Assembly (NCBI RefSeq): GCF_048403405.1 | Contig: NZ_CP183129.1 | Reading direction: 5' to 3' (one strand) | Length of the DNA stretch: 64,000 nt | Source: Escherichia coli | GTDB lineage: Bacteria > Pseudomonadota > Gammaproteobacteria > Enterobacterales > Enterobacteriaceae | In this document: positions 48,092 to 63,007 of the stretch, in pieces | Layout of the letters: the number at the start of each line of letters is the position of its first letter | How positions within the stretch are numbered: position 1 is the first letter of the stretch | Program-made: the position numbers and the translations under genes | Notes under the pieces: generated by a model | What the model was told of the DNA's origin: nothing | The model's input: only the letters and a program-made list of their open reading frames with translations | The model's database searches: none

Positions 48092-50167
48092 TTAATTCAC
48101 ACCCAGCGCCTTATAAACCGCATCAACCGGGTCTGAGTAAAAACTCACCTGAAACTTGGTAAATAACTCTGCCGGAACCGTTGGAATATCCATAGCCGAG
48201 GACATCGGCAACAGAACCCGTTTTGCGCCGCTGTCGAAGGCGAGCTGTAAACTGGCGGCAAGATCCTGCACCGGGTTAATTACTCCACCAAGGGTCATAC
48301 TGCCCAACACCACCATCTGTTCCTGCACCGGCTTTGCCAGCAATATCGAACATAAAGCGATAAGCGCAGCAAGACTGGTTGCGGTGCTAGGGCCAGTATT
48401 ATGCAGTTCAACGACATGAAGGTGATATTCATGATCAGAGAATTTCGCTGCCGCGCTTACCCGATTCAAATTGCCTTTGAAGTAATCGAAACCGACGCGG
48501 ATAGCTTCTTTCGCGGAGGTATTTGAACCCAGGCCCGATACACTATGCTTACCATTACCGGCAGTCATCTGCGTTTCAAAACGATACAGCCCGGTCATAC
48601 CGCTTTCTGCCTGAGTGACCAAATGCACAACGCCCGGCTTTGGCATTCCGGCAGGAATTAGTTCGCTGCCGCCCTGTTCCGGTACGCTTACAAAAAACTC
48701 TTCCAGCGTTTCGTTATCGATGTAGCTAAAGTTCACATCGAAGAACTCCAGGCCGCCCAGTTTTTTAAGTTGCTCTTTCACTCGACGACGAACTTCCATC
48801 GCATAGGTCAGGCAGACTCGTACATCTTCTTTGCTGTACGCGCCATCGGGATGCATGAGTTTTAACAACCCCGACACTGTACGTCGAACAGCAATCACGT
48901 CACGCTGATTGAGGTTATTTCCCAGCTTGAAGAATTTATCAATTGCATCGGAGAAGCTACGTTTACGCATCTCGCGCATGTATTCAGCGAGATAATCCGT
49001 AATCAAACCATAGCGATTGGTGAAAAATTCCGGGCGCATCTTAGGAATTTCCCAACCAGGAATATAGGCATGGAAGCGGTCAAAAAATGCAGTATCAATC
49101 ATCGCATCCGGGAACGGTGCTAGCAGATGGCTGGTTTTGACCAGTGTATCTACGCTCTGATTGATGTTGCCAACAAACACCATGGAGGCTTTGCCTTCAA
49201 TGGAGTCCCGACCACGAGAGAATGAGCCTGATGCCATGTAATCCTTCATGATCTGCACGCCATCTTTGTCTTTGAAGGTGATCCCTGCCACTTCATCAAA
49301 CGCGACGACGTCCCACATTCCCACAAGACCAATCTGCCGGCTGGCCATGTTGTAAAACAAGTTCGCCACCGTGGTTTGCCCGCCAGATACCAGCAGGGAG
49401 TTAGGAGAGCACTCTTTATAAACATGACTCTTACCTGTACCACGTGGACCAAGCTCGCAGACGTTATAGTTGTTTTCCACAAAGGGAATCATGCGAGTAA
49501 TCAGATGCCACTTGGTACGCTGCTCAATATTTGCAGGTTCCATCCCGACCGAACGTAACAGCACATCAATCCACTGGTCGCGATCAAACTGCTTGCGGGC
49601 TTCAAATACCTCGTCCATATCCATATTTGGCATCTGGATCGGCTTCAGTGTGAACAGCGAGAAAGGAGACGTTTTTTGCCCCTCTTCATAAAAGTAGTTC
49701 ACGGTGATCATGCACCAGATGCCACCAGTCAGCAGTTTCTCGTTGTCTTTCACCATCTGCGACGGCACCAGGGCATCTTTAATGCCAAGGTTAGAGAGCT
49801 GGGCTTCGTAAACGTCTTTCTTCTGATTTAGCTTTACCGTGACCTTATCGATAATCTTGTAAGAACCACGCTCGCGAATTAGTGATTTCACTTTTTCTGC
49901 TTCATCCGGGCGGACGTAGTTATCAGAAAGAATACGCTTAACCGACTGTAGCCCCTGCTCGACAACCTCATCGTCATCGGAGGCACAGTACATACCGAGT
50001 AGATATTCCAGTACGTAAACCGGAACATTCGCCCCTTCTTTAAGTTGCTTAGTCAGATCCTTACGCACCACGCGACCGCGAAAGTGCTGATTCAACAATG
50101 AATCCAGGTCCTGAGCCAACACAGAGGCCGTTTCCATGTTACTGGCTGAGTTATCCTGCTGTTGCAT
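48092..50167 (-). CDS. brxL: BREX Lon-like protease BrxL
   Basis: 691-aa protein with an AAA-like region (GPRGTGKSH) and C-terminal Lon-protease-like domain; last gene of the BREX operon. Confidence 0.85.
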   Translation of the reverse strand: MQQQDNSASNMETASVLAQDLDSLLNQHFRGRVVRKDLTKQLKEGANVPVYVLEYLLGMYCASDDDEVVEQGLQSVKRILSDNYVRPDEAEKVKSLIRERGSYKIIDKVTVKLNQKKDVYEAQLSNLGIKDALVPSQMVKDNEKLLTGGIWCMITVNYFYEEGQKTSPFSLFTLKPIQMPNMDMDEVFEARKQFDRDQWIDVLLRSVGMEPANIEQRTKWHLITRMIPFVENNYNVCELGPRGTGKSHVYKECSPNSLLVSGGQTTVANLFYNMASRQIGLVGMWDVVAFDEVAGITFKDKDGVQIMKDYMASGSFSRGRDSIEGKASMVFVGNINQSVDTLVKTSHLLAPFPDAMIDTAFFDRFHAYIPGWEIPKMRPEFFTNRYGLITDYLAEYMREMRKRSFSDAIDKFFKLGNNLNQRDVIAVRRTVSGLLKLMHPDGAYSKEDVRVCLTYAMEVRRRVKEQLKKLGGLEFFDVNFSYIDNETLEEFFVSVPEQGGSELIPAGMPKPGVVHLVTQAESGMTGLYRFETQMTAGNGKHSVSGLGSNTSAKEAIRVGFDYFKGNLNRVSAAAKFSDHEYHLHVVELHNTGPSTATSLAALIALCSILLAKPVQEQMVVLGSMTLGGVINPVQDLAASLQLAFDSGAKRVLLPMSSAMDIPTVPAELFTKFQVSFYSDPVDAVYKALGVN

Positions 50168-50177
50168 AACGCCTCAC

Positions 50178-61787: not shown

Positions 61788-62390
61788 TTAACGAGGAGTC
61801 AAAGTCGCCGCCGGTCTGGTTTCTGGTACCAGTCTGAAGGCGCGGTAATAGTTACGAGAATTAATGCCAGCGAGTGGAGAAAGATCGTATCCGCTATAGG
61901 TGCCTGGATAGAACATCAGCAATGGTGTAAATCCCATCACGTCCTGAAGTGCGCTCATTAGCTCATGACCACGAACCAACGGCCAGGCGTTACCAAGTCC
62001 CGTCAGAATGACAAATTGCTGCGCAGGAAGATCGACCGTGCGTGCAATATATTCCGCGATTTTTTTCTGGCTTAGCGGGGCAGCCAGATGCTTTTTCAGT
62101 GTCTCAAGGCCAAGCTCAGGCTCTCGTTGGCAGATACGTTCAAAGAGCTTACGTTCTTCCAACATATCGATGATAATCTGGAAGATATTTAGCGTTTTAT
62201 AGGTGTACTTTTTATCCAGTTTTTTGAATAAAAAGTGCAAGTACTCGCGGACCTGAAGCTCTTGTTTTGCCGGATAATCAAAGATCCAGAAGCCAATCTC
62301 ATTGCCGGAACCTTGGTTTTTCAAAAAACGGTCGTCGCCGATACGTTCTTCTAACTGTTTTAATCGGTATTCAAGGATCGGGTCATTCAT
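61788..62390 (-). CDS. brxB: BREX protein BrxB (DUF1788)
   Basis: 200-aa protein in the canonical second position of the BREX operon; overlaps brxA by 4 nt. Confidence 0.8.
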   Translation of the reverse strand: MNDPILEYRLKQLEERIGDDRFLKNQGSGNEIGFWIFDYPAKQELQVREYLHFLFKKLDKKYTYKTLNIFQIIIDMLEERKLFERICQREPELGLETLKKHLAAPLSQKKIAEYIARTVDLPAQQFVILTGLGNAWPLVRGHELMSALQDVMGFTPLLMFYPGTYSGYDLSPLAGINSRNYYRAFRLVPETRPAATLTPR

Positions 62391-63007
62391 GCGTTACCCT
62401 CCAGAATAGGGAGCAGTTCGGCTTTGTTTAAACGATGCAAGGCCGCTGCAACAACTGGTAGCAGGAAAACGTTTTGTAAATTGCGGCGGCGTGGGCTATC
62501 CAGGTAACCAGCTTCTGCGAGAGCCTTAATAAGATTGTTACCCATCTTTTGGATCGATGAATCAGAAAAAGCTGCCAGTTCCGGGTGTAAACGGAGATTC
62601 TCATCCACAAACTCACTCCAACAATTTATACCAAGCTTTTCTTTAAACTGCTGACGAGCTGGATTTACAACTTCAGCAATAAACGTCGCAACAACTGGAG
62701 ACTGGATCATCAACGCAACCAACAACATTTGCAGACGCTCGCTTTCACTGCCATCAGCAATCAGTTGCCAGCACTCCCGATCCAGGGTCATCAATCGCAG
62801 CCTTAAGGTTCGGGCATAACGATTTGCCGTACTCGTGGAGGACGCCTGAAGAATATTTTCATTGATTATTTGCTGCTGCCAGGTTGTTTCATCTGGTTCA
62901 GAGAGCAACAGCTCAGCAATGGTTCGGCTCTCACGAACCATCAACGAACCACCCAGCAGATCGCCAATCCAGCGTTTGTCATTTTTTGTCATGGTATTTA
63001 TCATCAA
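62387..63007 (-). CDS. brxA: BREX protein BrxA (DUF1819)
   Basis: ~200-aa first gene of the operon; true start may be the internal Met at ~62992. Confidence 0.8.
   Translation of the reverse strand: MMINTMTKNDKRWIGDLLGGSLMVRESRTIAELLLSEPDETTWQQQIINENILQASSTSTANRYARTLRLRLMTLDRECWQLIADGSESERLQMLLVALMIQSPVVATFIAEVVNPARQQFKEKLGINCWSEFVDENLRLHPELAAFSDSSIQKMGNNLIKALAEAGYLDSPRRRNLQNVFLLPVVAAALHRLNKAELLPILEGNA

Follow-up and report, generated by a model that had tools for sequence, protein, structure and literature searches.

Does the minus-strand gene cluster at positions 48092–63007 of the window (the whole 64,000-nt stretch of Escherichia coli DNA that was analysed) encode a complete type 1 BREX system, and what is the role of two further genes that lie inside it? 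In such systems, PglX marks host DNA by methylating one adenine of a non-palindromic 6-bp motif and, together with BrxB, BrxC, and PglZ (BrxA and BrxL serving as modulators), blocks the replication of DNA with unmethylated motifs. A check of ORFs and translations found eight uninterrupted ORFs that fill the whole span, all on the minus strand, in the order brxA-brxB-brxC-pglX-(ABC ATPase-DUF4276)-pglZ-brxL. Six of the eight match PADLOC profiles for BREX-1 over their full length (BrxA: 1.8e-94; BrxB: 4.8e-67; BrxC, PglX, PglZ, and BrxL: all E = 0), and NCBIfam scores exceed the curated cut-offs for BREX_BrxC (1196 bits, cut-off 400), BREX_1_MTaseX (1463 bits, cut-off 500), PglZ type A (TIGR02687: 1031 bits, cut-off 270), and BrxL (TIGR02653: 1338 bits, cut-off 628). 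The original prediction of a complete type 1 system with all six core genes is borne out by these matches, and its boundaries run exactly from the brxL stop codon to the start of the longest brxA ORF (TTG at 63007). It was also right that the core genes stand in canonical order, but not in its gene count: between pglX and pglZ, the order is interrupted by an insertion of 1.7 kb that consists of an ATPase gene (53338–54459) and a DUF4276 gene (52775–53344) that had gone unreported. Taken together, 48092–63007 very probably represents an intact type 1 BREX system with an embedded two-gene cassette, forming one eight-gene defence operon whose BREX part is predicted from its sequence to act against phages. 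The locus itself is already known; it is a catalogued type 1 BREX, and its exact sequence carries a PGAP annotation in RefSeq.

The proteins were compared with those of the type 1 BREX of E. coli HS, the known locus named in the original prediction, which shares all six core genes and their order and was reportedly characterised by Gordeeva et al. in 2019. Identities with BrxA, BrxB, BrxC, PglZ, and BrxL of HS range from 66 to 98%. The brxA gene (DUF1819; 62387–63007; 69% identity) has its longest ORF from the TTG codon, the RefSeq annotation covers 62387–62992, and the true start is likely the ATG at 62992 or at 63004. It overlaps by 4 nt with brxB (DUF1788; 61788–62390; 74%), which is followed by brxC (58161–61775; 70%), encoding a P-loop ATPase with a Walker A motif (GFFGSGKS, aa 74–81) and the sequence MVDEVG (aa 265–270). 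The pglX gene (54459–58112) encodes a BREX-1 N6-adenine DNA methyltransferase and specificity subunit with the motifs NPPY (aa 507–510) and DPACGSG (SAM motif, aa 310–316). Type A pglZ (50178–52775; 66%; PDB relative 9nv3) contains SYTQLG and ADHGF, and brxL (48092–50167; 98%) encodes a Lon-related ATPase with the Walker A motif GPRGTGKS at aa 240–247. All motifs that had been called intact (PglX NPPY, the BrxC P-loop, and those of PglZ and BrxL) were thus located in the translations. PglZ has an alkaline-phosphatase fold and is a metal-dependent nuclease/phosphodiesterase, an activity that has been published (PMC12205998).

PglX departs from this pattern of conservation, with 87% identity to its HS counterpart outside the target-recognition region and about 30% inside. 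An alignment of otherwise near-identical E. coli loci places this hypervariable region at aa ~540–973 (55194–56495), where identity is 20–50% compared to ~96% elsewhere in the protein, and a local GC dip to 0.37 coincides with it. PDB relatives of PglX are 9ewz and 8zek, both E. coli BrxX structures, and 8c45 (PglX); the target-recognition region is ~35–40% identical to the solved PglX structures, as judged by eye from the alignment. Because this region resembles that of no characterised PglX, the methylation motif of this allele is not predictable. The HS motif GGTAAG should not be assumed given the ~30% identity of the two regions, nor should GATCAG of Salmonella Typhimurium, whose target-recognition region also differs. 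The PglX accession (WP_001098045) had no match in a search of the literature.

The embedded genes are joined to their neighbours on both sides. The first (53338–54459, minus strand) encodes an OLD-like ABC ATPase of 373 aa and its start overlaps the pglX stop codon (TAATG); the second (52775–53344, minus strand; 189 aa) overlaps the ATPase gene by 7 nt, and its stop codon overlaps the pglZ start in the same manner (TAATG), the eight ORFs being tightly packed. Both proteins were matched end to end by PADLOC profiles (HEC-01A: 1.2e-181, residues 1–373 of 373; HEC-01B: 5.2e-100, residues 1–189 of 189), with AAA_21 and DUF4276 as the respective Pfam families. In the ATPase we found Walker A (GANGAGKS, aa 30–37), signature (LISDGT, aa 257–262), Walker B (IIEEPE, aa 283–288), and H-loop (TTHS, aa 316–319) motifs, and the best solved relatives of its profile are OLD, the OLD nuclease of retron Eco8, and GajA. 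The DUF4276 protein has conserved acidic residues (E9, E13, D71, E73, E101, D107). Confident structure models show an ABC head for the ATPase and a probable Toprim/OLD-like nuclease fold for the DUF4276 protein, a family classed as Toprim in published work (PMC12065111). An allele alignment and the structure model further delimit a variable insert in the ATPase (aa ~75–200; 53860–54237), modelled as a beta-sheet insertion, in which about half of the residues differ by eye in the N39 and L007 alleles and the flanks are nearly identical. This insert is a candidate trigger-sensing region.

Several known systems resemble this pair. One paper describes BREX-embedded OLD-ABC/Toprim modules as backup effectors (PMC12839542). 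HEC-01, with the same ATPase-then-Toprim architecture, was defined from cassettes inside Hma systems (Payne et al. 2024 preprint), whereas the host operon here is BREX-1; the family is a candidate rather than a proven system. Similar to the window, MADS associates an AAA/ABC ATPase (MAD3) and a DUF4276 homologue (MAD4) with methylation-based defence (PMC12065111). However, the other MADS genes are absent from the locus, its host system being BREX-1, and the window ATPase reaches 4.7e-24 and 85 bits with the NCBIfam MAD3 model, far below the cut-off of 420. Neither protein matched AriB/DUF4435, and the DUF4276 profile misses AriB at E-values up to 10, so the pair is not PARIS; AriA is only a distant sequence relative of the ATPase (7.8e-5), and its solved chain has 464 aa compared to 373 aa. 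PARIS is further defined by a response to anti-restriction proteins of the Ocr type and by a nuclease that cleaves tRNA.

A close parallel in layout is StySA/BREXSty of Salmonella Typhimurium (LT2, D23580), likewise a type 1 BREX on a leuX island with a P4-family integrase and no BrxR, which has an ABC ATPase and Toprim cassette at the same pglX-pglZ junction (PMC9009780, PMC11341690). Its cassette consists of an ATPase and a DUF4435 protein (PARIS ariA/ariB, PMC9009780), whereas that of the window pairs the ATPase with DUF4276. We considered that the window pair might be the ‘PARIS ariA/ariB’ of D23580 and rejected this identification, the LT2 pair being ATPase plus DUF4435 (PMC9009780); in agreement, a scan of genome contigs returned no Salmonella LT2. 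Other Salmonella enterica genomes carry the eight-gene module of the window with 94–98% identity except in PglX, and in a Salmonella locus with the window-type pair PglX is not that of D23580. Given the DUF4435 protein in LT2 and this differing PglX, the published D23580 results apply to another cassette that occupies this site.

To what extent does the pair depend on BREX? Of 80 species-level loci, 79 have the ATPase gene immediately upstream of that for DUF4276; PglX and PglZ flank only about 10 of the 80 loci, and ~69 have no BREX neighbour. The pair was found at the pglX-pglZ junction in Enterobacteriaceae, Xenorhabdus, Oceanospirillales, Ectothiorhodospira, and Thiothrix, and on its own in Moraxella, in Andreprevotia, and beside cI in a P2-like prophage of Vibrio. 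Since it occurs without BREX in most species sampled, including this prophage, the pair behaves as an autonomous cassette. Against isolated phage genomes, tblastn with the DUF4276 protein returned only two unannotated 2-kb fragments. In the window, the cassette was captured at the pglX-pglZ junction and is co-translated with BREX. By analogy with its relatives, the pair most likely adds a second, abortive-infection-type layer to the operon: the variable insert would let the ATPase sense a phage cue, upon which the ATPase would release or activate the Toprim nuclease, as in PARIS, Gabija, and OLD. Counting against this reading, the one HEC-01 system examined by experiment conferred no resistance to the phages used (Payne et al. 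preprint).

The same observation would suit a toxin-antitoxin-like addiction cassette, a selfish pair whose ATPase restrains the nuclease and which stabilises defence operons without sensing phages. The full Pfam name of AAA_21 (‘putative AbiEii toxin, type IV TA system’ domain), the label ‘antitoxin’ given to AriA in the PDB, and the movement of the cassette among very different contexts are all compatible with it. We nonetheless regard addiction as improbable: OLD, Gabija, PARIS, retron Eco8, and Septu/PtuA, the relatives of the pair, are experimentally proven defence effectors, and a hypervariable ATPase insert is more readily explained by the sensing of varied triggers than by a simple addiction function.

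Alternatively, the pair may be an accessory or regulator of BREX rather than an independent defence, for example a guard that is set off once a DNA mimic such as Ocr has blocked PglX, or a brake on BREX; the eight genes would then make up a single integrated system. Translational coupling to both pglX and pglZ and recurrence at exactly this junction in distant taxa are in line with such a role, and a guard has been proposed (PMC12839542). In Salmonella D23580, the PARIS pair at the same site had no activity of its own, and its deletion raised BREX defence ~10-fold, as seen in plating efficiency (PMC11341690), hinting at interplay rather than independence. However, most homologous pairs lack a BREX neighbour, one lies in a prophage hotspot, and 377 of 403 E. 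coli BREX-1 loci, including the functional HS system, do without the pair; moreover, methylation in Salmonella was independent of the PARIS pair (PMC11341690). A purely accessory role is therefore doubtful, and an independent second layer remains our preferred reading. A broader proposal, only slightly less improbable, is that the pglX-pglZ junction of type 1 BREX serves specifically to accommodate exchangeable ABC ATPase/Toprim guard cassettes and that the eight-gene unit is an integrated two-layer system, in which the DUF4276-type pair would monitor BREX or its inhibition. The junction would then be empty in E. coli HS (a 176-bp spacer between pglX and pglZ with no genes), filled by PARIS in S. 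Typhimurium, and filled by the DUF4276 type here. If this were true, each operon would hold two specificity modules, the hypervariable ATPase insert and the PglX target-recognition region, diversifying in step.

Upstream of brxA, a four-locus comparison identified a conserved region at 63008–63090 (minus strand), including GATTACAAT...TTGATTTTTGCGAGCAGCATTCCGG, that is shared by the window, E. coli HS, and two further loci, one in Salmonella and one on an Enterobacteriaceae-like contig; sequences farther upstream are unrelated. A promoter upstream of brxA has been reported in Salmonella D23580 (PMC11341690), and we infer from the conservation that 63008–63090 may act as leader/promoter here. 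When the locus was scanned for promoters and terminators, hits were no more numerous than in shuffled sequence, which makes the scan uninformative, and no convincing sigma-70 promoter emerged. This chance-level outcome was counted against the main reading as regards operon expression. The original prediction of no WYL-type BrxR upstream of brxA holds, as no ORF of at least 55 aa lies wholly inside the 567-bp stretch at 63008–63574. The only WYL protein, at 42685–43368, was considered as a displaced BrxR and rejected: it matched generic WYL profiles only, is located 4.7 kb beyond brxL, and showed no sequence match to solved proteins, BrxR included, at E-values up to 0.1.

Beyond this stretch, the window ends within a P4-family tyrosine integrase gene, of which it includes the 3' part (~141 codons; 63575–64000, minus strand) with a PRK09692 domain (8.8e-23) and the motifs HGFR and AAYIH. 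In two inspected genomes identical over the region, the annotation of the full integrase gene records a frameshift and an internal stop, which is why the island is probably fixed in place rather than mobile; the integrase is intact in related loci. In MS 69-1, whose genome is identical over 47500–64000, the integrase and tRNA-Leu(CAA) are 200 bp apart and adjoin ahr and idnK, and the same integrase/tRNA-Leu(CAA) arrangement was found in two other loci (L003 and L005). In at least one strain that is identical over the window, 4621, a further ~46 kb of islands separate the integrase from leuX. The window contains no tRNA gene and, at up to three mismatches, no copy of the leuX 3' end as a direct repeat delimiting the island, the distal end of which abuts a truncated nanS. 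As predicted, the locus is horizontally acquired cargo, located in the leuX-nanS variable region, and the placement at tRNA-leuX is confirmed by genomes identical or nearly identical to the window, in which the integrase abuts tRNA-Leu(CAA). HS BREX, in contrast, sits at thrW (PMC9009780). In K-12, as the original prediction stated, KpLE2 (intB, fec, sgc, and yjh genes) occupies the leuX-nanS interval instead. An IS3 remnant adjoins brxL, and a GTPase gene near the operon is frameshifted.

These signs of decay raise the question of whether the locus is intact on paper and yet phenotypically silent cargo on a decaying island, conferring neither methylation nor exclusion, because the operon would be unexpressed or the recombinant PglX target-recognition region non-functional. 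The integrase pseudogene, IS3 remnant, frameshifted GTPase gene, and truncated nanS fit this scenario, as do the outcome of the promoter scan and a target-recognition region that resembles a recombined low-GC cassette. On the other hand, no stop or frameshift interrupts any of the eight ORFs (14.9 kb), which are identical in eight genomes, a state unlikely without selection given the decay of genes nearby; the leader upstream of brxA is conserved with loci of known expression, and the full set of catalytic motifs is present. We consider a silent locus improbable, and an intact eight-gene defence operon the better account.

Among the matches listed, eight RefSeq genomes with a BREX-1 annotation show 100% identity over the 16.5 kb around the locus. 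The eight-gene locus is carried by ~0.5% of complete E. coli genomes and also by some large plasmids, and the embedded pair is present in 26 of the 403 complete E. coli genomes with BREX-1. The module also occurs in Salmonella and Yersinia and, including the copies on E. coli plasmids, is 94–100% conserved except for PglX. The description as strain-specific cargo is accordingly correct in that K-12 lacks the locus, but the identical RefSeq genomes, the plasmids, and the other genera do not fit a rare novelty. The locus alone adds little, as type 1 BREX is well characterised and embedded ABC ATPase/Toprim modules have been surveyed. Its near-identical relatives, differing almost only in the PglX target-recognition region and the ATPase insert, constitute a natural test set, comparison of which could map recognition-region sequence to methylation motif, and the DUF4276-type (HEC-01) pair gains a tractable E. 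coli context for trigger finding. For strain biology, the operon is a predicted restriction-like barrier in this minority of E. coli genomes and plasmids. The window matches strains 4621, TUM14771, TUM1226, OX030728, and GN02461 in one piece, and coordinates left of ~39.7 kb were derived from strain 4621. Unlike the window, MS 69-1 has an extra IS2 inside the island.

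The span from 48092 to 63007 comprises eight minus-strand ORFs arranged head to tail, with no internal stops. In transcription order, these are brxA (62387-63007; 206 aa as the longest ORF), brxB (61788-62390; 200 aa), brxC (58161-61775; 1204 aa), pglX (54459-58112; 1217 aa), an ABC ATPase gene (53338-54459; 373 aa), a gene for a DUF4276 protein (52775-53344; 189 aa), pglZ (50178-52775; 865 aa), and brxL (48092-50167; 691 aa). Six of the eight ORFs showed full-length matches to BREX profiles in PADLOC (E-values from 0 to 4.8e-67), and NCBIfam scores exceeded the curated cut-offs for BREX_BrxC (1196 vs. 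400), BREX-1 PglX (1463 vs. 500), PglZ type A (1031 vs. 270), and BrxL (1338 vs. 628). The motifs NPPY (aa 507-510) and DPACGSG (aa 310-316) were found in PglX, GFFGSGKS (aa 74-81) in BrxC, and GPRGTGKS (aa 240-247) in BrxL. Given these profile matches, scores, and motifs, the BREX observation is real and far beyond chance, and the gene set is an intact BREX-1 with all catalytic motifs. The original prediction of a complete type 1 BREX system with intact motifs was accurate to the exact coordinates, but it described a six-gene locus; the six BREX genes are all present, whereas the span contains eight, the ATPase-DUF4276 pair having been missed. This is a known system, correctly named, in sequence that is already annotated: eight RefSeq E. 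coli genomes among the matches listed are 100% identical to it over the 16.5 kb surrounding the locus, and PGAP annotation in those genomes already names the six BREX genes. BREX-1 PglX methylates a 6-bp non-palindromic motif, and both methylation and exclusion require BrxB, BrxC, PglX, and PglZ. Defence is modulated by BrxL (PMC11341690). The 48-bp brxC-pglX spacer holds an 8-bp GC-rich hairpin (GGGCAGAC-ATT-GTCTGCCC) followed by TTTT (58128-58146, minus strand), which was not flagged by the terminator scan because its T-run is short and which may be an attenuator or RNA-processing site.

The 1.7 kb from pglX to pglZ is coding sequence, not spacer. A TAATG is shared by the stop of pglX and the start of the ATPase gene, which in turn overlaps the DUF4276 gene by 7 nt, and a second TAATG joins the stop of the DUF4276 gene to the start of pglZ; stop/start overlaps at all three junctions show that the pair is built into the operon. 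In PADLOC, the ATPase matched HEC-01A over residues 1-373 (1.2e-181) and the DUF4276 protein matched HEC-01B over residues 1-189 (5.2e-100), whereas the AriA model of PARIS matched the ATPase at only 6e-26 and the AriB models gave no match to either protein. Lacking the defining DUF4435 AriB, the pair lies outside PARIS. Pfam assigned AAA_21, AAA_15, and SMC_N to the ATPase and DUF4276 to the 189-aa protein. An AlphaFold model of the latter (43 homologues) reached a pLDDT of 96.7, and a Foldseek search with this model returned no matches. The DUF4276 protein carries conserved acidic residues (E9, D71, and E73) at the Toprim Glu and DxD positions; DUF4276 has been assigned to the Toprim superfamily, with MADS Mad4 as a homologue (PMC12065111). 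With a profile of the ATPase family, OLD (6e-12), the retron Eco8 OLD nuclease, GajA, and PtuA ranked above AriA (7.8e-5). The embedded pair is of the OLD-like ABC ATPase/Toprim type, and its predicted working is that of OLD, Gabija, and PARIS, in which an ABC ATPase controls a Toprim nuclease. Acting in this way, it would form a second, abortive-infection-type layer of defence. Alternatively, the pair could be a BREX-linked guard or regulator. The sole HEC-01 system that was put to the test did not protect against the phages used (Payne et al. preprint), and the PARIS cassette in the Salmonella BREX island is silent by itself, while its deletion slightly altered BREX efficiency (PMC11341690); together, these results keep a guard or regulatory role a live rival to the nuclease layer.

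Comparison of the pglX-pglZ junction in E. coli HS, S. Typhimurium, and the window revealed at least three states: empty, PARIS, and the DUF4276 type, respectively. The characterised HS BREX locus differs from the window in having just a 176-bp gap in place of the pair. In Salmonella D23580, PARIS ariA/ariB is embedded in the BREX island and has been tested experimentally (PMC11341690). We considered whether the window pair is this same ariA/ariB of D23580/LT2 and rejected it, since LT2 STM4493/4 encode an ATPase and a DUF4435 protein (Zaworski et al., PMC9009780); the Salmonella PARIS genes are thus a distinct cassette inserted at this junction. The window-type module also occurs in other Salmonella enterica, with the ATPase 95%, the DUF4276 protein 94%, and BrxA/B/C, PglZ, and BrxL 95-98% identical to those of the window, and with a PglX allele that is not that of D23580.

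When a 3.2-kb query spanning the junction was searched in distant mode against 5426 complete genomes, 403 gave matches and the pair was covered in only 26; the majority of the remaining genomes matched in two pieces, with pglX and pglZ brought together. The eight-gene module is conserved and mobile. It is found with its integrase on large E. coli plasmids (e.g., pLR-06-1). Yersinia ruckeri and Enterobacteriaceae-like contigs carry it too, its proteins being 89-98% identical except for PglX and, in one contig, for the ATPase (83%). Xenorhabdus, an Oceanospirillales MAG, and several other Proteobacteria have more distant versions of the pair, likewise embedded at the pglX-pglZ junction. Among 80 species-level loci, the ATPase is directly upstream of the DUF4276 relative in 79, and PglX and PglZ flank the pair in only about 10. 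Stand-alone copies are chromosomal in Moraxella and Andreprevotia, and in Vibrio fluvialis (L011/L012, 8892-10561) a pair 56% identical to that of the window sits right after a P2-like prophage cI repressor, adjoining a restriction-modification module (C5-methylase/MvaI-BcnI/Vsr). PARIS and Old were discovered in prophage hotspots of this kind. The tight linkage, the small BREX-flanked fraction, and the stand-alone copies indicate that the pair is an autonomous mobile two-gene unit, which BREX-1 captured repeatedly or anciently. The embedded-pair pattern in general has already been published (Payne et al. preprint; PMC12839542). In the Oceanospirillales MAG (3448-5211), a single BREX-1 operon has two embedded cargos: the pglX-pglZ junction is occupied by the ATPase-DUF4276 pair and the brxC-pglX junction by a GmrSD-type (BrxU-like) gene, with an extra AAA_23 ATPase after brxL.

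Two proteins of the module contain hypervariable patches. PglX residues ~540-973 (55194-56495, minus strand), coinciding with a GC dip to 0.37, show 20-50% identity between E. coli loci that are otherwise ~96% identical, and at least four target-recognition alleles exist among E. coli loci carrying the embedded pair; the region looks like a swapped cassette. By-eye alignments of this region gave ~35-40% identity to the solved Salmonella PglX and to E. coli HS BrxX. The latter reportedly recognises GGTAAG. The solved Salmonella PglX recognises GATCAG, and PglX is the BREX specificity factor (PMC11341690). With such a divergent recognition region in the specificity factor, the motif of the window allele cannot be inferred and probably differs from both GATCAG and GGTAAG. 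The ATPase is 83% identical overall in the related E. coli N39 allele and in a metagenome contig (L007), whereas identities of 98-100% were recorded for its neighbours, or of 92-100% for the DUF4276 protein and PglZ beside it. The ATPase differences cluster at aa ~75-200 (53860-54237, minus strand), the beta-sheet insert of the ABC head, which is a candidate trigger-sensing surface.

Upstream of brxA, no ORF of at least 55 aa lies wholly inside the 567-bp stretch, and hence BrxR, the WYL-domain regulator found there in some BREX islands, is absent, as had been predicted. The ~80 nt adjoining brxA are kept in Salmonella, an Enterobacteriaceae-like contig, and E. coli HS, the remainder being unrelated, and probably represent the promoter/leader reported for D23580. 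A 227-aa WYL-domain protein is encoded 4.7 kb past brxL (42685-43368, minus strand) in the CP4-like backbone, and sequence comparison with proteins of solved structure, BrxR included, revealed no similarity. Its gene adjoins a frameshifted YeeP-like GTPase gene (41633-43368, minus strand) in this backbone, which includes CbtA/YeeU, RadC, and DUF932.

The integrase next to BREX is cut at the window end, and the 3' portion that is visible fits the P4-type model as predicted, but the gene is decayed: in genomes identical over the region it is split across three ORFs, and its annotation records a frameshift and an internal stop. It is intact in related loci. The window has no tRNA genes; the predicted leuX placement was borne out in MS 69-1, 23CRST029, and N39, where ~200 bp separate the integrase from tRNA-Leu(CAA), i.e., leuX, beside ahr and idnK. 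The statement that K-12 has KpLE2 at this position was also correct: intB and the KpLE2 cargo lie there in the interval from leuX to nanS. Strain 4621 gives a single unbroken match to the window, and its integrase and leuX are ~46 kb apart; the intervening DNA consists of additional islands and terminates in another integrase, which is intact, showing that islands are stacked in tandem at leuX. This segment comprises a second CP4-like element and encodes a type I R-M system, a SIR2 protein, and a large AAA protein. At its distal end (~31.5-31.9 kb), the island adjoins a truncated nanS (31506-31850, plus strand) and borders on the conserved nanC-nanM-fim region. A direct repeat derived from leuX was not found at this end, which, together with the nanS fragment, suggests a deletion at the distal junction.

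The same island contains a complete AbiE toxin-antitoxin/abortive-infection pair (33524-34859, minus strand; AbiEii, 1.1e-126; AbiEi-like DUF6088, 1.7e-53), adjoined by genes for an HNH endonuclease (32272-32922) and for part of a restriction enzyme that binds phosphorothioate DNA (33059-33208). Four genes (44037-46181, plus strand) located between the WYL gene and an IS3 remnant encode three hypothetical proteins and a short GIY-YIG protein whose N-terminus is PDC-S57-like (2.5e-28); this cluster is kept beside BREX in other leuX islands (L003 and L005) and could be another defence candidate. About 1 kb past the brxL stop, a full-length Rfam match to isrN, an Hfq-binding sRNA (46934-47075, minus strand; 136.9 bits vs. 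a gathering score of 44), lies antisense within an IS3-family transposase pseudogene (46673-47778, plus strand). Outside the island, low GC was found at 12001-13000 (0.33) and 26001-30000 (0.37-0.40), which related-genome coordinates place close to a DUF2686-family gene and between fimB and nanC, respectively.
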